Shown: positions 1,773 through 61,100 of the stretch, piece by piece
Layout: every line of letters begins with the position of its first letter
Position numbering within the stretch: position 1 is the stretch's first letter
Source of the DNA: an uncultured Clostridiaceae bacterium
GTDB taxonomy: Bacteria; Bacillota; Clostridia; Ch29
Direction of reading: 5' to 3'
Assembly (NCBI GenBank): GCA_964508195.1
Contig: CAZDSH010000001.1
Location: forward strand, 67,263-131,262
DNA: 64,000 bases
Translations under genes and position numbers: made by a program
Notes under the pieces: model-generated
Told to the model about the DNA's origin: nothing
The model's database searches: none
What the model saw: the letters and a program-made list of their open reading frames with translations, nothing else

Positions 1773-3113
1773 TTACATAAAGGGGAACCCCGGTCTTCCT
1801 TGTTTTAGACCCCTTTCCATGCCGGCAAACTGTTTCATCAGTTTTTTCGTCTGTTCAAATTGCTTTAGGAGTCTGTTCACCCTTTGAACTTTAGTGCCGC
1901 TGCCCATAGCGATCCTCCTACGCCTGCTGGCGTTTATTATGGATGGATTTCTCTTTTCCGCCGGGGTCATGGACTTTATTATAGCCTCTATTTGGAGTAA
2001 TTCCCTTTCGTCTACTTTCATAGGCCCCATCTGCCTGGATTTCATGCCGGGTATCATACCCATTATCTGTTCGAGGGGGCCCATTTTCTTTAGCTGGTTT
2101 AGCTGTTCGAGGAAATCCTCTAATGTAAACTGTTGTCTCCTTAGCTTTTTGGTAAGTTCTATCGCCTTTTTCTGATCAAAGCTCTCTTCCGCCCTCTCTA
2201 TAAGGGTAAGCACATCACCCATTCCTAATATTCGGGATGCCATACGATCGGGGTAAAACAGCTCTATGTCCTCAGGTTTTTCGCCGGTACCGGCAAATAT
2301 AATCGGTTTACCGGTAACGGCCTTTACCGATAATGCCGCGCCTCCCCGGGCGTCCCCATCGAGCTTTGTTAGGAATACGCCGTCTATACCTAGGCTATCG
2401 TTAAATCCTTTAGCCACGTTAACCGCATCCTGTCCCGTCATAGCGTCTACGACGAGGAGTGTTTCGTCAGGTTTTATCGCATCCCTCATGGTTTTTAACT
2501 CTGTCATGAGGGTATCGTCTATGTGCAAACGGCCGGCGGTATCAATGATGACTACATCGTTGCCCTTTCTTTTGGCCTCGGCCAGGCCAGCCCTGGCAAT
2601 ATCCGCGGGCATCCCTTTGTCACCCATAGAAAATACTGGAATATCAGCACTATCACCGACGATATGAAGTTGCTTTATCGCCGCGGGCCTGTACGTATCG
2701 CAGGCCACTAAAATAGGGTTTTTGTTGTTATGTTTTTTGAAATATTTTGCTATCTTCGCTGCGGCGGTAGTCTTACCCGCCCCCTGTAGACCTACGAGCA
2801 TCACTTTTGTAATGCCTGTTGAGGAAAAGACCGGTTTACTCGGGGTACCCCCCATGAGCTCCGTAAGCTGTTCTTTTACTATTTTTATCACCTGCTGCCC
2901 CGGGGTTAGGCTCTCCATTACTGTGCTGTCCATTGCACCTTCGGATACTTTTTTTATAAAGTCTTTGACTACCAAAAAATTCACATCCGCCTCTAACAGC
3001 GCAAGTCTTATTTCCCTCATACCCTCCTTAATATCCTTCTCCGATAGCTTGCCCTTGCTCCTAAAACGTTTAAAAGCGAATTGTAGCTTTTCCGTTAACC
3101 CTTCGAAGGCCAT
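1773..3113 (-). CDS. ffh: Signal recognition particle protein Ffh
   Basis: SRP54 N and G domains (GLQGAGKTT, DTAGR) and a Met-rich M domain (MGPMKQIMGMIPGM). Confidence 0.95.
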   Translation of the reverse strand: MAFEGLTEKLQFAFKRFRSKGKLSEKDIKEGMREIRLALLEADVNFLVVKDFIKKVSEGAMDSTVMESLTPGQQVIKIVKEQLTELMGGTPSKPVFSSTGITKVMLVGLQGAGKTTAAAKIAKYFKKHNNKNPILVACDTYRPAAIKQLHIVGDSADIPVFSMGDKGMPADIARAGLAEAKRKGNDVVIIDTAGRLHIDDTLMTELKTMRDAIKPDETLLVVDAMTGQDAVNVAKGFNDSLGIDGVFLTKLDGDARGGAALSVKAVTGKPIIFAGTGEKPEDIELFYPDRMASRILGMGDVLTLIERAEESFDQKKAIELTKKLRRQQFTLEDFLEQLNQLKKMGPLEQIMGMIPGMKSRQMGPMKVDERELLQIEAIIKSMTPAEKRNPSIINASRRRRIAMGSGTKVQRVNRLLKQFEQTKKLMKQFAGMERGLKQGRPGFPFM

Positions 3114-4575: not shown

Positions 4576-7500
4576 CTAGCTCACCATATCCTCAAGCTTT
4601 ATTGAAACCAACTTTGAAACGCCCTTTTCTTCCATAGTAACGCCGTACAAATTATTCGCAATCTCTATAGTACCCTTTCTATGGGTTATAACGACAAATT
4701 GTATATCCGAAGACAGTTTTTTTAAAAACGCACTAAATCTTTGGACATTGGTATCGTCAAGGGCGGATTCTATTTCGTCTAGAATACAAAAAGGTGACGG
4801 TTTTACCGATAGTATTGCAAAGAGCAGGGCTATGGCAGTGAGGGCTTTTTCACCCCCGGATAGGAGCGAAAGGTGTTGAAGTTTTTTACCCGGCGGTTGG
4901 GCTATTATATTGATCCCCGCTTCCAACATGTTATCATCGTCAGCAAGGTTCACCTGCGCCTTACCGCCGCCGAACAGCTCTCGGAATATTCTGCCGAAGC
5001 TGTCGTTTATGATAGAAAATTGTTTTGAAAATTGTTCTTCCATGGCACTCTGCATCTCGTTAATTATTTGGTTAAGGGCGCCTTTAGCATCCTCTAAATC
5101 CTTCCGTTGTGATGTGAGAAAGTCAAACCTGTCCTTTACCTTTTTGTACTCCTCAATGGCATTTAAATTTATATTACCAAAGCTCCTTAGCTTAGATTTA
5201 AGCCTTTTTATTCTGTTACGGGCAGCTTTTTCGTCCTCTATTTCATGTTGGTAGTCAAGGGCCTGTATACGGGTAACTTCGTAATCGTTCCACATCCTAT
5301 CATGGAAACTGTTAAGCTCCATATCCAATTTTGCCAATTGCATCTCATCCCCGTGCAACAACCTTTCTAATTCCGTTATTTTTTTATCCGTTTCTTTGCT
5401 CTCCTGTTCCCTTTCCTTTAATTGTTGTATATAGTTCGTTTTTAGTTGTCCCAACCTCGCTATTTCGACGTTATTGTTATCGGTTTTTATGATAAGGGTT
5501 TTGATATTTTGATCGATAGAATTTGCCTCATTTTCTATTCGTTTTATATTGGCCCTGTTTTCCCTTATCCTTTCCTGCTTGTTCAACAAAGAAGATTGTA
5601 GCCGTCCTAGGGACAAAAGCGTCCTTTGGAAACTTTCTTCCATATTTTCTAACCTTTGTTCCATCTTTGCCACTTCAACACGGCGGAGGGTTATCTGTTG
5701 TTTAATATTTTCACGATTTCGCTTCATCTCAGAATTTTCTTTCTGTAGCGTCTGTACTATTTCCTGTTCTTTTTTTACTTCTATTTCCTTACTTTTTATA
5801 ATCCTATCAATGCTATCCATCTCTTTTTGCATCCCGTAGTACTCTGCTTCTAGCTCCATCTTTTCCGTTTCCAAACGGGATTTAACGGCACCTTTCTCTA
5901 GGAGCTCTTTGTTGTTCGATTCTAACATTTCCTCCAGTTTAATACACTGCAGCTCCAGCTCATGATACCTTTGTGTCGTTTTAACTAGACTATGATTAAC
6001 CGCCCTTTCCGTAGCACAGAGGCTATGTAGCGATGTTTCTAGTTTGTTTACCGTATCCCCATTATATTTAACGGCTTCCTTTAGGGATTTTATTTCCCTT
6101 TTCCGTTGCAAAAGACCGGTCTCCTTACGGAAGTTACTTCCTCCCGTTATAGAACCCCCGGCATTTATCACATCCCCATCCATCGTCACAATTTTAAAGG
6201 CATAACCATAAACCCTTGCTATATTTATACCGTTATCCAAGGAATCCACAACTATTACCCTACCGAGTAGATTAGCTATAATATTTCGTATTTTTTTAGA
6301 ACAGCCCACAAGATCAGGGGCGGAGCCTATACTTCCTTTCATATCCAACGCTTTCTTTTCTTTTTCGGAAAGGTATCTAGGTTGTATAGAGTTTACGGGC
6401 AAAAAAGTTGCCCGCCCCAACTTGTTCGATTTTAAGTGCTCAATCGCTCTTTTGGCATCCCCTTCGGTATCAGTAATTATACTTTGTAGACTATACCCCA
6501 GAGCAATTTCTATAGCCCTTTCCAGGCCGTCCTTTACTTCTATAAGCCCGCCTACGGGACCTATTATGCCCCTTGAAAAATTATTATCTTTGTCGCAGGC
6601 TGTCATTAACGCTTTAACGCTCCTTGAATAGCCCTCGTGCTCGTCCTCCATCTGCATAAGAAGTTTTAACTTCGATCTATCAGAGTTTAAGATTGAACTA
6701 ACCTTTTTTAGTTTTCGTTCTAGATTGGCTCGTTCTGTGGCATGGGCACGCATTTTCCTTTGGAGCTCCTTTTTAATGTCCGTCTGTTCCCCTAATTCTG
6801 CTGTGATAGCATCGTATTCATTCCTATAGTTTGTATCTTTATCCCTTAGCCCTTCTATTTGTGTGGCTATATTATCTATCTCCCCCAGCAGTTTAACCTT
6901 ACGCCTATATGCAGCTTCCCTAAGGGCCCTTAGATTATTCTTTTCGTTATTCTTATCGGAGATAAAGTTAAGGCCTTCCCTTATCCTAGCCTGCATAGCC
7001 TCGGCCCTTTCCTGTTCTTTTCCTACCTGAAACCCTAAATAATCTAAATTAACCTGGAAGGAGTTAATTATCTTATTTTTGTCCTTTAACTGCGCCTCCA
7101 TATCCCTAATGCTCTGTTCCAGGCCTTCCTTTTCCCCCTTAGCTACGGCAATATCCCCTTCTATGCTTTCAAGTTCCCTCGTATGCATATTAATGCTATC
7201 CTCTTCGCTTTGTATCCTTTGTTTTAATACTTTTATTTCACCTTTTTTTATCTCCATCAAGTTAAGATTTTTAAACATATTCTCTTGATTCTCTTTAAGT
7301 TCTTCCTCCGTTTGCATAATTCTATTTTCCAGCATGGCGATATCCGTCTCCAAGCGGGTTTTGGCCTTCGTCCTGTCGGTGATACTGTCTCGAAGGCTCT
7401 CAAGACGTTGTAAAATGTTCTCCTTTTGTCTGTTAAGTTTCTCAATAGCCTTTACGAACATGCTAAGTTCAAGTCCCTTAAGCTCGGCCTTTACCGCTTT

Positions 7501-31716: not shown

Positions 31717-31920
31717 CTACTTGCCAGCCATTTGTCTTTGTGCCTGTTCGATCATCTGTCTTACCATATTTCCTCCGATATGTCCCGCTTCCCTGGAGGT
31801 AAGGTCACCATTGTAGCCTTTTTTCAGGTTAACACCTACTTGATTTGCCACCTCGAATTTCATCTGTTCAAGGGCAGCCCTTGCTTCGGGTATAACATTT
31901 TGTTTACTGCTTCTTGGCAC
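31717..31920 (-). CDS. Alpha/beta-type small acid-soluble spore protein
   Basis: Conserved SASP core EARAALEQMKFEVANQVGVNL...GGNMVRQMIEQ. A GTG start sits 9 nt after AGGAGGTGA; the in-frame ATG at 31953 lacks a ribosome-binding site. Confidence 0.8.
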   Translation of the reverse strand: MPRSSKQNVIPEARAALEQMKFEVANQVGVNLKKGYNGDLTSREAGHIGGNMVRQMIEQAQRQMAGK

Positions 31921-32033
31921 TTGTGTGTCACCTCCTATTAGCCTTTGTGACATTAATTTAACCATTAGAAATTAATTTAAACTAGTAATTATTTCTCCAA
32001 ACCCTTCAAAAATACAAATTAATAATCGAACCT

Positions 32034-32071: not shown

Positions 32072-32326
32072 TTATTTACCAATCATTTGTTTTTGTACCT
32101 GTTCTATCATTTGTTTTACCATGAACCCGCCGATGGATCCCGCATCCTTTGCAGTCATATCACCATTATATCCGTCCTTAAGGTTAACCCCTATCTGGGA
32201 AGCCACTTCGAATTTCATCTTATCAAGGGCTTGTCTGGCCTCGGGATAAAGCGTCCTTTTGCTGCTACCGGAGCTACCCCCGGTGCTGCCGCCGCCCCTG
32301 CCTATCCATCCTGTTAAACCATCCAA
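32072..32326 (-). CDS. Alpha/beta-type small acid-soluble spore protein with a Gly/Ser-rich N-terminal extension
   Basis: SASP core EARQALDKMKFEVASQIGVNL...GGFMVKQMIEQ. A TTG start sits 9 nt after AGGAGGTGA. The N-terminal stretch is GRGGGSTGGSSGSS. Confidence 0.8.
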   Translation of the reverse strand: MDGLTGWIGRGGGSTGGSSGSSKRTLYPEARQALDKMKFEVASQIGVNLKDGYNGDMTAKDAGSIGGFMVKQMIEQVQKQMIGK

Positions 32327-36138: not shown

Positions 36139-36489
36139 TTATGCCCGGACACCTTTTACATTTACATTGACTCTTTTAACCTCCGTGCCGGTCATCGTCT
36201 CTACGGAATACTTTACTTTGTCTATAATATTCTGAGCGATGGCCGATATTTTTGTACCAAACTTTACAACTATGTACAGGTCAATTATTAAGGCGTCTTC
36301 TTCTATGTGCACTTTAACACCTTTGCTTAGATGTTCTTTTTTTAAAAGTTTTACTATCCCATCGGTACTTCCCCTTGACGCCATTCCTACAAGCCCGTAA
36401 CATTCCATGGTAGCAATCCCGGCAATATTTGCAAGGACATCATCGCCGATAAATATACTACCAAAATTATTATCAATTTTAGCCGTCAC
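36139..36489 (-). CDS. Asp23/Gls24 family alkaline shock protein (YloU)
   Basis: 116-aa Asp23-family protein in the conserved position upstream of yloV. Confidence 0.8.
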   Translation of the reverse strand: MTAKIDNNFGSIFIGDDVLANIAGIATMECYGLVGMASRGSTDGIVKLLKKEHLSKGVKVHIEEDALIIDLYIVVKFGTKISAIAQNIIDKVKYSVETMTGTEVKRVNVNVKGVRA

Positions 36490-36645
36490 AATATAACCTC
36501 CTAATCAATGATAGGATATTTATATTTTATAATATACCGATTTGTTTTACAACAAACCGTCCTTTGATTTTAGTATTATATTATTGCCAATAATTATGTT
36601 GTATGTTAAAATGAATATGTTTTAACAACGCGAGGAGGTGTTCCT

Positions 36646-36837
36646 ATGGCATCTGTATGTTACATTTGTGAGCGAAAACGCCAGGCCGGTAACAAAATAA
36701 GCCATTCAAATAGACATTCAAGGCGGCGTTGGAAGCCTAATATAAAAAGAGTAAAGGCAATAGTAGATGGTAGTCCCAGAAGTATTTATGTTTGCACGAA
36801 ATGCCTTCGGTCAGGTAAAGTTGTACGATCGATATAG
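36646..36837 (+). CDS. rpmB: 50S ribosomal protein L28
   Basis: MASVCYICERKRQAGNKISHSNRHSRRRWKPNIKRV is canonical L28 with a Cys zinc ribbon. Ribosome-binding site GAGGAGGTG. Confidence 0.95.
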   Translation: MASVCYICERKRQAGNKISHSNRHSRRRWKPNIKRVKAIVDGSPRSIYVCTKCLRSGKVVRSI

Positions 36838-36842
36838 TATAC

Positions 36843-36880
36843 AAAAACGTGCGGGGTACGCTCCCCCGACACGTTTTTTA
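36843..36880. terminator. Rho-independent terminator after rpmB, possibly bidirectional and also serving spoVM
   Basis: AAAACGTGCGGGG-TACGCT-CCCCGACACGTTTTTTATTTTTATT: a GC-rich stem followed by a T-run. Confidence 0.65.
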
Positions 36881-36900
36881 TTTTTATTGTTTATATACGA

Positions 36901-36981
36901 TTAATTTTTAGGTTTAATCCGGAATAATTTTCTTAGGAATGTTCTTAAAAATTTAGGCGGTTTCATTACAAATATTCTCAT
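36901..36981 (-). CDS. spoVM: Stage V sporulation protein M (26-aa spore-coat morphogenetic peptide)
   Basis: MRIFVMKPPKFLRTFLRKLFRIKPKN matches B. subtilis SpoVM (MKFYTIKLPKFLGGIVRAMLGSFRKD) in length (26 aa), in the K-L/P-PKFL core and in basic amphipathic character. Location between rpmB and thiN is identical to B. subtilis. Own ribosome-binding site GGGGGTG. Confidence 0.7.
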   Translation of the reverse strand: MRIFVMKPPKFLRTFLRKLFRIKPKN

Positions 36982-37003
36982 ACCTGCACCCCCAATAGAA
37001 TAA

Positions 37004-37132
37004 TTAACTAGCCAAAACTTTGCAGCCCACGAAAATAAGAGCAATACTCGCCCCCAACAACCAACACCATGCAGGTAATATGAGGCTGCATATAACACCG
37101 AGCACAAACGCAAGAACCAGTAAACTTCCCAT
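37004..37132 (-). CDS. Hypothetical hydrophobic micropeptide (42 aa, single predicted TM helix); paralog of the adjacent 44-aa peptide
   Basis: MGSLLVLAFVLGVICSLILPAWCWLLGASIALIFVGCKVLAS. Shares an AGAAAG-N-ATG upstream context and an LP(A/L)W(C/V)W motif with the 37249-37383 peptide. Its stop lies 22 nt upstream of spoVM. Confidence 0.4.
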   Translation of the reverse strand: MGSLLVLAFVLGVICSLILPAWCWLLGASIALIFVGCKVLAS

Positions 37133-37248
37133 ACTTTTCTTTCTAAAACCCGGCACGTCTGTTCACCCCCGCTACCCGCCGGACACCCTAAAGTATGCAG
37201 CCGGAGTCGGCGGCGGCGGAAACCTATCCGACACATACCATCACCGTC

Positions 37249-37383
37249 CTAACATAGGAAAAGACGATATAAGGTATAAATAAGGACACCCATTAATATG
37301 GCAAGGGTTATGTACCACACCCATAAGGGTATAAACACAACTATTGCCAGCACTCCTATCGCAATTGCCATTAACCCTAACAT
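37249..37383 (-). CDS. Hypothetical hydrophobic micropeptide (44 aa, single predicted TM helix)
   Basis: MLGLMAIAIGVLAIVVFIPLWVWYITLAILMGVLIYTLYRLFLC, starting at an internal ATG. The 61-aa ORF-track version starts at TTG with no ribosome-binding site. Confidence 0.4.
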   Translation of the reverse strand: MLGLMAIAIGVLAIVVFIPLWVWYITLAILMGVLIYTLYRLFLC

Positions 37384-37524
37384 CTTTCTTATACGGGTTC
37401 TCCTTCGCAAGCCCTCCTCCCCCTTATAATGCAATATATACGTCTAATTTTTCGCAAAATAAAAGCTCCCCTAATACTATGGTATTCAGGGGGCTCCCCA
37501 ATTGACACTAATATTTGTATATTT

Positions 37525-38151
37525 CTAATCCCTTGGCTTTATTACTATTAACCATCCCTCTTTGAAATCTATGCGGCCCCGTTCTTCGATGAGCACATTG
37601 CTTATACCCCTTGTGCTTTCCATTTTAAGAGTAAAGTCCCTAAGGGGGTATTTAAAACCCTTTAATGTTAGGCCGCGTACGGCCCCGTTATATGGTATAA
37701 GGGAAACAGTCGAGCCCTTCCCTTTTATTGTAGTACCTTCTTTTATTATTGTTATTCTATTATGCTCATTTATTATTTCCCCCGTTGCATTTTTGTCAGC
37801 TATAAACATAAGTAAATTGAGGTTAGCTATAGTATGATCTAACCGTGTACCGATAGCCCCAAGGAGCAGTATATGCCGTGCACCCTCTCTAAGGGCATAT
37901 TCAACGGCCAACTGGGTATCGGTTTTATCCTTTTCCGATGGGTACTCGATTATCTTTATACCCCTTAATGTTTCGTCGTTTTTCCTCTTATAGGAATCAA
38001 AATCCCCTATTATAACCTGGGGCGTTATATCCATTCTCCGTGCATGTAGCATACCACCATCGGCACAAATAACTAAGCTGCAATCCTTTAAAAGATCCCG
38101 ATGGAATTGGGGGTCCTCTAAGCTTCCGTAGGAAATAATCGCTGCCTTCAT
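37525..38151 (-). CDS. thiN: Thiamine diphosphokinase
   Basis: 208-aa TPK family protein with N-terminal catalytic and C-terminal thiamine-binding domains. Position equivalent to yloS, next to rpe. Confidence 0.8.
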   Translation of the reverse strand: MKAAIISYGSLEDPQFHRDLLKDCSLVICADGGMLHARRMDITPQVIIGDFDSYKRKNDETLRGIKIIEYPSEKDKTDTQLAVEYALREGARHILLLGAIGTRLDHTIANLNLLMFIADKNATGEIINEHNRITIIKEGTTIKGKGSTVSLIPYNGAVRGLTLKGFKYPLRDFTLKMESTRGISNVLIEERGRIDFKEGWLIVIKPRD

Positions 38152-38820
38152 TTATTTTTCCCCCTCTGCTTTGAACAGCTCTTTAAATTGTATCACTTTT
38201 TGTTCCACTGACGGCGCGTTATAAATAGAGGATCCAGCTACTAGTACAGTAGCCCCAGCCCTTATCAGGGTCCTTGTATTCCCTAAGTCCACGCCCCCGT
38301 CCACTTCTATTTCAAAGGAATAGCCCCTGTCCCTTTTTAACCCTTCAAGCCAGGCTATTTTATCTAAAGCTGCGGGTATGAACTGCTGGCCGCCAAAACC
38401 CGGGTTAACGGCCATAACTAGTACAAGATCCAACTCCGGTAACATATATTCGAGTACCCCCGGAGGTGTTGCCGGGTTTATGGATATCCCTGCCTTTTTG
38501 CCCAATCCCTTTATGTTGGATACAGTTTTATGTATATGGCTACAGGCTTCCCAGTGCACGGTAATTATATCAGCCCCCGCCATTACAAAATCCTTTATAT
38601 ACCTATCGGCATTTTCAATCATCAAATGTACGTCAAAGGGAATATCGGAAATCCCCCTGAGGCACTTTATAACCCCGGGGCCTATCGTGATGTTGGGTAC
38701 GAAATGGCCATCCATGACGTCTATATGCAACCAATCCGCCCCCGCCCTCTCAACCTTTATTATTTCGTCCCCTAATCGTGCAAAGTCCGCTGAGAGCAGG
38801 GATGGGGCCAGTTTAATCAT
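38152..38820 (-). CDS. rpe: Ribulose-phosphate 3-epimerase
   Basis: [20 protein letters not shown]...[12 protein letters not shown] is canonical Rpe. Confidence 0.95.
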
Positions 38821-60811: not shown

Positions 60812-61100
60812 TACCACCTCAATCGTTTTTTTAGAAAATAAAAAAGTCCCTTTATATATAAAGGGACGGGCATCGCCCGCGGTACCACCCTGTTTGGCTG
60901 TAATACCCGCTTTATTTTAGCTATTGTATCGGATAGCACCGGCGGGGCTTACTGTTTATACCTTTCAGCCCGCTGCTCACGAGGGATTTTCACTATTATA
61001 CGTTACCACATCCCACCATACCTGTGGCTCTCTGTCAACGGTTTAATAGATACTCTTCTCGATCATCGCTACTTCTACTGTATATTTGTGTTACGAAGAT
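60812..61100 (-). ncRNA. T-box riboswitch leader of ileS
   Basis: The minus strand contains the T-box antiterminator sequence CAGGGTGGTACCGCGG. It is followed by the terminator GTCCCTTTATATATAAAGGGAC plus TTTTTT. A stem-I AGAGA motif lies upstream, and an AUC (Ile) triplet is present in the specifier region. Confidence 0.75.

Follow-up and report, generated by a model that had tools for sequence, protein, structure and literature searches.

A tandem pair of CD25622-like membrane-protein genes upstream of spoVM in an uncultured Clostridiaceae bacterium

Two short genes, here called A and B, lie in tandem on the minus strand between thiN and spoVM in a stretch of 64,000 nucleotides (nt) from an uncultured Clostridiaceae bacterium (assembly GCA_964508195.1, contig CAZDSH010000001.1, positions 67,263 to 131,262; the whole stretch is referred to below as the window). 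Both are genuine protein-coding genes under purifying selection. Sequence comparison places the tandem pair, as new members, in a described, uncharacterised family, that of C. difficile CD25622, and supports their origin as paralogues by an old tandem duplication. The overall reading, which was assigned a probability of roughly 0.72, is that A and B encode paralogous membrane proteins in a sigma-E-type unit with spoVM and have an accessory role at the forespore. The locus is arranged as follows (window coordinates).

38820..38152, minus strand: rpe, 5' of thiN
38151..37525, minus strand: thiN, followed by a hairpin with a T-run and then by gene A
37249..37410, minus strand: gene A, 53 amino acids (aa), TTG start; the A-type paralogue, with WY and LY-x-C motifs
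37157..37248, minus strand: A–B spacer, 92 nt, 65% GC, holding the Shine–Dalgarno site of gene B
37004..37156, minus strand: gene B, 50 aa, GTG start; the B-type paralogue and CD25622 homologue
36901..36981, minus strand: spoVM of the clostridial type, 26 aa
36852..36868, both strands: bidirectional intrinsic terminator common to the A–B–spoVM unit and rpmB
36646..36837, plus strand: rpmB, convergent with A–B–spoVM

Gene models, coding evidence and protein architecture

The original prediction had placed two minus-strand open reading frames (ORFs) of 44 and 42 aa between thiN and the spoVM-like gene, with starts at ATG 37383 and ATG 37132. The ORFs are real, the pair being conserved in many relatives with a coding pattern of substitution, and the stop of gene B at 37004 lies 22 nt ahead of the spoVM ATG on the same strand, as had been described. 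Their lengths were revised to 53 and 50 aa on the basis of conserved non-ATG starts. Gene A starts at TTG 37410, after GGGGGAGGAGG, with the Shine–Dalgarno sequence GGGGGAGGAGGG at 37412..37423 (minus strand); GGAGGAGG and the TTG are invariant in all sequences of clade 1 (the clades are listed in the next section but one). Most changes upstream of this TTG are non-synonymous, and in the window a stop lies in the frame there, whereas most changes downstream of it are synonymous; the ATG at 37383 is replaced by a Val codon in sequence P0026. The product of gene A is MRRRTRIRKMLGLMAIAIGVLAIVVFIPLWVWYITLAILMGVLIYTLYRLFLC. Gene B starts at GTG 37156, with the Shine–Dalgarno sequence GGGGGTGA at 37170..37163 (minus strand), and its product is MPGFRKKSMGSLLVLAFVLGVICSLILPAWCWLLGASIALIFVGCKVLAS. 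In relatives the GTG is replaced by ATG or TTG, preceded by GGAGGTG or GGGGTG, and the ATG at 37132 is missing from L004, L079, P0020 and P0037. The shared AGAAAG, which had been regarded as upstream context of the two ORFs, encodes Arg-Lys of the basic N-terminus and is not a ribosome-binding element. With starts other than ATG, genes of this kind are easily mis-called, and the models of A and B given here correct such a case.

Coding potential was assessed by comparison with a close relative (contigs L001–L003, ~88% DNA identity) and with the more distant L004, L066–L070 and L079, all of which carry both ORFs in the same order. The frames of A and B are intact in every relative. By the Nei–Gojobori method, the ratio of non-synonymous to synonymous substitution rates (dN/dS) across both clades was 0.04–0.07 for gene A and 0.06–0.37 for gene B, with synonymous sites near saturation; for the spoVM-like gene it was 0.06–0.23. 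The pooled ratio of the corresponding proportions of differences (pN/pS) was 0.29 in frame versus 0.83 and 1.23 in the other frames for gene A, and 0.40 in frame versus 0.73 and 1.14 for gene B. The differences in both genes peak at third codon positions. Comparison with related genomes and dN/dS in both frames, which had been proposed as a check, thus revealed conservation and purifying selection for A and B alike.

A 111-aa ORF at 36901..37236 (minus strand), which runs in the spoVM frame through all of gene B, was considered and rejected as a chance open frame: no stop interrupts it in the window or in L001, but L004, L066, L069 and L079 have stops in this frame, and its pN/pS is about 0.7–1.1.

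Both products contain ~37–40 consecutive hydrophobic residues divided by the invariant Pro28-x3-Trp32, with a grand average of hydropathy (GRAVY) of about 1.5. In both, the first hydrophobic helix is rich in small residues (G-x6-G-x-G) and the C-terminus is very short; across the family the N-terminus carries a mean net charge of +3.7, against about 0 for the turn and the C-terminus. The common plan that had been noticed, a hydrophobic stretch, P-x-W-x-W and a second hydrophobic stretch, is present in both ORFs. The accompanying label 'single-TM' (one transmembrane segment, TM) was abandoned, as about 40 hydrophobic residues are split by Pro and Trp; AlphaFold2 (AF2) breaks A in two and models B as one helix. 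The AF2 model of A has helices at 4–26 and 29–52 with a break at Ile27-Pro28 (predicted local distance difference test score, pLDDT, 78). Monomer models of this kind do not decide between a hairpin and a long kinked helix. On account of the ~40-residue hydrophobic run, the central Pro-x3-Trp and the positive N-terminus, the most likely topology is a two-helix membrane hairpin with both ends cytoplasmic and the Trp-rich turn at the outer membrane face.

Family, paralogy and the relation to CD25622

Profile searches covering 5.8 billion proteins returned 15 homologue clusters for gene A, all syntenic, and 20 for gene B; the clusters are named 'hypothetical' or are unnamed, and almost all have 50–53 aa. 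Profiles were required, since gene A as a single-sequence query retrieved only one close relative. When 1.84 billion representatives were searched exhaustively with HMMER and a joint A+B profile (E <= 1e-3, clustering at 50% identity), 35 clusters were obtained, every one of 39–80 aa with the same plan and none with an informative name. Across 43 family sequences Pro28 and Trp32 are the sole invariant positions, in the same register, and conserved glycines mark each hydrophobic half of the alignment. The family can be defined by a length of about 50 aa, a basic N-terminus and the invariant Pro28-x3-Trp32. Pfam and NCBIfam scans of the family proteins yielded sub-threshold noise only, and neither a PDB sequence search nor Foldseek against the PDB found a match for A or B.

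That A and B are paralogous, as originally proposed, is supported by profile evidence and intermediate sequences. The two were aligned in register by hhalign (E 9e-5), and several single-copy members obtain near-equal scores on the A and B models. In L071, a clade-2 locus, the A–B spacer repeats the leader of gene A (4896..5000 versus 4640..4739, TTAATGTATGCTTT..AAAGCTAGG.GG, with a small hairpin just before the Shine–Dalgarno sequence), which is a trace of tandem duplication or of gene conversion. On these grounds an old tandem duplication is supported, with the single-copy forms being B-like.

CD25622 of C. difficile 630 is a 50-aa protein of unknown function described as 'primarily conserved among the Peptostreptococcaceae' (Ribis et al., 2017, mSphere, PMC5607322). 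spoVM lies downstream of it, is co-transcribed with it according to RNA-seq and is sigma-E-dependent in the mother cell; an insertion in CD25622 that is polar on spoVM has the effect of a spoVM mutation, heat resistance falling 3–5-fold (PMC5607322). The CD25622 locus was recovered via the primer sequences in the supplement of that paper, using a 23-nt piece of primer 2149 as query. Three contigs (25–27% GC) were matched, with a 50-aa ORF, MRNNKSKVLLGILCLATGMAVILSMLLPGWIWSALTALILIGCGALLFFC, followed by spoVM, MKVVTIKLPKWISSIILKFMRKSKND, and then by convergent rpmB. The ORF starts 77 bp past the primer-2148 site, in agreement with PMC5607322, and its nucleotides 37–50 (CT followed by TTGTCTAGCAAC) are the published 'CD25622 38' TargeTron intron-binding site/exon-binding site (IBS/EBS) sequence in antisense orientation. 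The 77-bp offset and the TargeTron target match identify the ORF as CD25622 or a near-identical orthologue. Neither metagenome nor viral contigs contained an exact match to primer 2148 itself, whose 3' end departs from the recovered contigs at 3–4 positions. A literature search under other locus-tag spellings of CD25622 found nothing.

The recovered ORF was absent from every profile against which it was scored. hhalign matched it to the family profile with 97.2% probability (E 4e-11, 49 columns), its hidden Markov model (HMM) score against the family was 36.4 bits (E 3.5e-4 at Z = 1.84e9), and BLASTP aligned it to gene B with 40% identity over 48 aa (E 8e-8), Pro28 and Trp32 being in register. 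The score on the A model was lower (15.7 bits), and gene A is therefore tied to CD25622 via B and the intermediates. Judged by these alignments, A and B belong to the CD25622 family, which is wider than published.

Genomic context and transcription signals

In every context read, the family gene is sited, in one or two copies, at the junction of the prpC–prkC–rsgA–rpe–thiN operon and rpmB. The thiN–rpmB junction is the place of spoVM in B. subtilis. The hosts of all readable family loci are Clostridia, and genes for small acid-soluble spore proteins (SASPs) lie near most of them. The loci fall into the following groups, X denoting the family gene.

Clade 1, including L079: two family copies, spoVM directly downstream
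L081: one family copy, spoVM directly downstream
L080: one family copy, spoVM (Pfam PF08183-positive) 10 nt away; thiN and rpmB both gone from the locus
C. difficile-type locus: one family copy, X–spoVM–rpmB kept, thiN missing
Clade 2, including a 'Lutisporaceae' metagenome-assembled genome (MAG): two family copies, without spoVM at the locus
L078, L076 and L082: family gene kept, without spoVM at the locus

A spoVM-adjacent class, with the family gene 10–35 nt upstream of spoVM, accordingly comprises four lineage groups. Because L080 and the C. difficile-type locus keep X–spoVM after the loss of thiN, X–spoVM acts as a unit, although X is also able to persist by itself. The ancestral thiN–X junction is broken in the C. 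difficile-type locus; upstream of CD25622 a 158-aa ORF of unknown type, beside a MerR-like regulator, was observed there (L084 2826..3302, L085 8484..8960). In a thiN-based genome scan the A–B pair was present in only 3 of 62 loci. The species label of one clade-1 MAG, L004 (JAENYX010000001.1, 'Clostridium thermobutyricum'), looks doubtful; the locus, at 44% GC, has a thiN with 58% identity to that of the window.

The spoVM product of the window has 26 aa, MRIFVMKPPKFLRTFLRKLFRIKPKN, and is preceded by the Shine–Dalgarno sequence GGGGGTG at 36993..36987. It retains Pro9 and K-x-P-K-F-L, is conserved in clade 1 and lies between thiN and rpmB as in B. subtilis, where the gene is BSU15810 (Galperin, 2012). 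It resembles the SpoVMs of C. thermocellum and Caldicellulosiruptor (Galperin, 2012, Fig. S4). NCBIfam SpoVM_broad (NF033436) gave 14.3 bits (E 0.031) against a cut-off of 31, and Pfam PF08183 did not match it. SpoVMs of the clade-1 type have Pro8-Pro9 (MKPPKF) and a strongly basic tail, and routine annotation would miss the gene. Beyond rpmB follow genes for Asp23, DAK/FakA and RecG and two alpha/beta-type SASP genes (32072..32326 and 31717..31965, minus strand, 3' of recG), a pair that recurs in related loci; these two genes confirm that the host of the window is a spore-former.

Two elements were located between thiN and gene A.

37461..37498, minus strand: terminator-like hairpin 3' of thiN; stem 37494..37488 with 37471..37465, T-run 37464..37456
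37474..37508, minus strand: sigma-E-type promoter-like motif; ATT 37502..37500, 18-nt spacer, CATAGTAT 37481..37474

The 14-nt hairpin loop, GAATACCATAGTAT, is invariant across clade 1; as it exceeds 8 nt, the hairpin was skipped by the simple terminator scan. The hairpin is kept in 5/5 clade-1 sequences with one-sided (G-U) changes only, none compensatory, and clade 2 has a hairpin and a T-run at the equivalent position. The promoter-like -10 element CATAGTAT sits inside this loop. A GTGTCAAT box at 37508..37501 (minus strand) is also conserved and, with the loop, is more conserved than a plain terminator needs. ATA-N17/18-CATAGTAT occurs in five of the six clade-1 loci, the ATA lying within a conserved GTGTCAATA box; the corresponding motif upstream in L081 is ATA-N18-CATAATAT. 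In 13 of 16 lineages GTRTCA precedes the first family gene, its distance from a CATA-type element varying. The sigma-E consensus of C. difficile consists of a -35 ATA and a CATA-type -10 with 16–18 bp spacing (PMC3789822). At the motif level the upstream sequence fits this pattern and is a candidate promoter. Readings as sigma-G, sigma-F, sigma-K or sigma-A promoters, made by hand, fitted more poorly than sigma-E. Readings of GTGTCAAT as a SpoIIID site or a Spo0A box are each a partial match only. The segment 37453..37510 may hold a sigma-E promoter lying within a terminator; alternatively, it may be the site of a regulator, perhaps one like SpoIIID.

No terminator was found between A, B and spoVM by the scan, which gave one weak hit inside B with only 3 G-C pairs. 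The bidirectional terminator at 36852..36868 was detected on each strand and is kept in relatives. The arrangement suggests that A, B and spoVM are co-transcribed in the window organism. The GC-rich segment that had been seen between the ORFs was confirmed as the 65% GC spacer. Its length is variable, with a 32-nt deletion in L004 and 15–30 nt in most clade-2 loci. As a candidate conserved structured RNA the spacer was rejected (fold z = -0.41, length not conserved, no Rfam match), and an Rfam search of 36400..38000 at a permissive threshold matched nothing relevant. The sole Rfam match above the gathering score in the whole window is a T-box leader (RF00230, 127.8 bits) at 60859..61075 on the minus strand. 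In L066 an insertion of ~90 nt (about 2905..3000) separates the thiN terminator from the gene A Shine–Dalgarno sequence and contains the inverted repeat GAAGGATCT..AGATTCTTC / GCTTCGCTTCTTCGG.

Interpretation and comparison with known systems

Under the reading preferred here, A, B and spoVM would be the three cistrons of a single transcription unit, which would end at the terminator common to it and rpmB and be set off from thiN by the hairpin. Transcription would take place in the mother cell under sigma-E, as is probable by homology with CD25622–spoVM. Transcripts starting at a promoter within the thiN-terminator loop would carry no 5' arm of the hairpin and hence would not be terminated by it. 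The proteins made from A and B would become part of the mother-cell membranes, among them the outer forespore membrane to which SpoVM binds. Their role there would be an accessory and probably non-essential one, as membrane components in the assembly of the envelope or the coat basement. The original prediction of sporulation micropeptides co-expressed with spoVM is thereby upheld in part: the genes are real and paralogous, the gap to spoVM is 22 nt with no intervening terminator, the adjacency recurs in independent lineages and CD25622 provides a precedent; on the other side, the family persists without spoVM at the locus.

Several observations weigh against this reading. B is modelled by AF2 as one continuous helix, 6–49 (pLDDT 81). 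Compared directly, A and B show weak similarity, with an hhalign probability of only 59%. The window has ATT, not ATA, at -35, and clade 2 shows the same geometry with a weaker, TATATAAT-like -10. Transcripts of the prkC–thiN operon may read through into A–B. Four lineage groups (clade 2, L078, L076 and L082) retain the family with no spoVM at the locus, and its role therefore cannot depend wholly on SpoVM. Finally, the polar CD25622 insertion mutant is no worse than a spoVM mutant and has no separable phenotype (PMC5607322).

These last two points are shared by the alternative that fares best, albeit an unlikely one: that A and B are vegetative small membrane proteins ending the prpC–prkC–rsgA–rpe–thiN operon, for example modulators of envelope signalling, and that their closeness to spoVM is merely positional ancestry. 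It would account for the four groups lacking spoVM at the locus, for the C. difficile mutant without a sporulation phenotype of its own (PMC5607322) and for the position of the family gene directly after thiN in all but two lineage groups. It is opposed by the conserved terminator hairpin and T-run that part thiN from A in both clades, by L080 and the C. difficile-type locus, in which thiN is lost and X and spoVM are still adjacent, by the sigma-E dependence of CD25622 transcription (PMC5607322) and by the more than 50 thiN loci of other Bacillota, including Lachnospiraceae and Selenomonadales, in which no family member was found.

A bolder version of the sporulation reading, which we regard as rather improbable, is that the P-x3-W hairpin proteins are autonomous organisers of the outer forespore membrane that partly replace SpoVM. 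As such they might provide the SpoIVA basement layer with integral anchors or with markers of curvature or lipid packing. If true, the replacement reading would explain why C. difficile can largely dispense with SpoVM and why, to our knowledge, many sporulating clostridia have no spoVM. Lineages in which spoVM was lost from its ancestral locus, with one or two family genes left there, would agree with it as well.

It is very improbable that the pair is a small membrane-toxin-like duplication, as had been suggested, whether of the type I-like or the holin-like kind. The products are small, very hydrophobic and encoded in tandem, and in the Pfam scan a few members of the family matched a membrane toxin family at the level of sub-threshold noise. 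However, the genes hold a fixed chromosomal position in lineages that diverged deeply and lie outside mobile DNA, they are under purifying selection comparable to that on spoVM, and PADLOC (0 hits) and PHROGs (noise only) returned nothing meaningful. A simple scan showed no convincing antisense promoter, the products have two hydrophobic segments and a basic N-terminus rather than one TM with a charged C-terminus, and CD25622 was disrupted and complemented without reported toxicity (PMC5607322). Least credible of all is that an RNA leader or attenuator regulating spoVM (the thiN-proximal hairpin and/or the GC-rich spacer), and not the ORFs, is the functional element: the conservation of the hairpin loop and the GTGTCAAT box beyond the need of a plain terminator is in its favour, but the substitution pattern is protein-coding in the annotated frames only, the spacer varies in length, folds no better than shuffled sequence and has no Rfam match, the hairpin lacks compensatory changes in clade 1, and a regulatory hairpin could coexist with the genes without replacing them.

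The preferred reading, in which A and B are accessory membrane proteins of the spoVM unit, bears on how clostridia build the spore coat with a dispensable or missing SpoVM. By sequence, CD25622 is not peculiar to the Peptostreptococcaceae; its family occurs in several sporulating lineages of Clostridia, is sometimes duplicated and is sometimes kept without spoVM. The significance is limited in that the C. difficile member, the only one studied, has no phenotype of its own in the sole genetic data available (PMC5607322).

Four known systems can be set beside A and B. Type I toxins and small holins are likewise small hydrophobic peptides that are sometimes duplicated; they differ from A and B in synteny, selection, architecture and matches to defence or phage families. 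BofA, an 87-aa sigma-E-dependent membrane protein of the mother cell, inhibits SpoIVFB and packs against a larger membrane protein. As a small multi-helix integral membrane protein of the mother cell it may offer a functional analogy; it is longer, is encoded at another locus and shows no similarity to the family in the Pfam and NCBIfam scans. SpoVM is the textbook micro-protein that reads membrane curvature, a 26-aa peripheral amphipathic helix that labels the outer forespore membrane and recruits SpoIVA. It shares with A and B its association with sporulation and with the membrane, its basic character and its place in the same unit. The SpoVM of the window has a GRAVY of -0.27 and a net charge of +9, whereas A and B are fully hydrophobic, predicted integral membrane proteins, and the sequences are unrelated. 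The closest counterpart is CD25622, which resembles gene B in its 50 aa, its architecture and its position directly upstream of spoVM on the same strand, beside convergent rpmB. C. difficile has a single copy and no thiN upstream of it, whereas the window has thiN upstream of A and a tandem pair that includes the diverged A-type paralogue.

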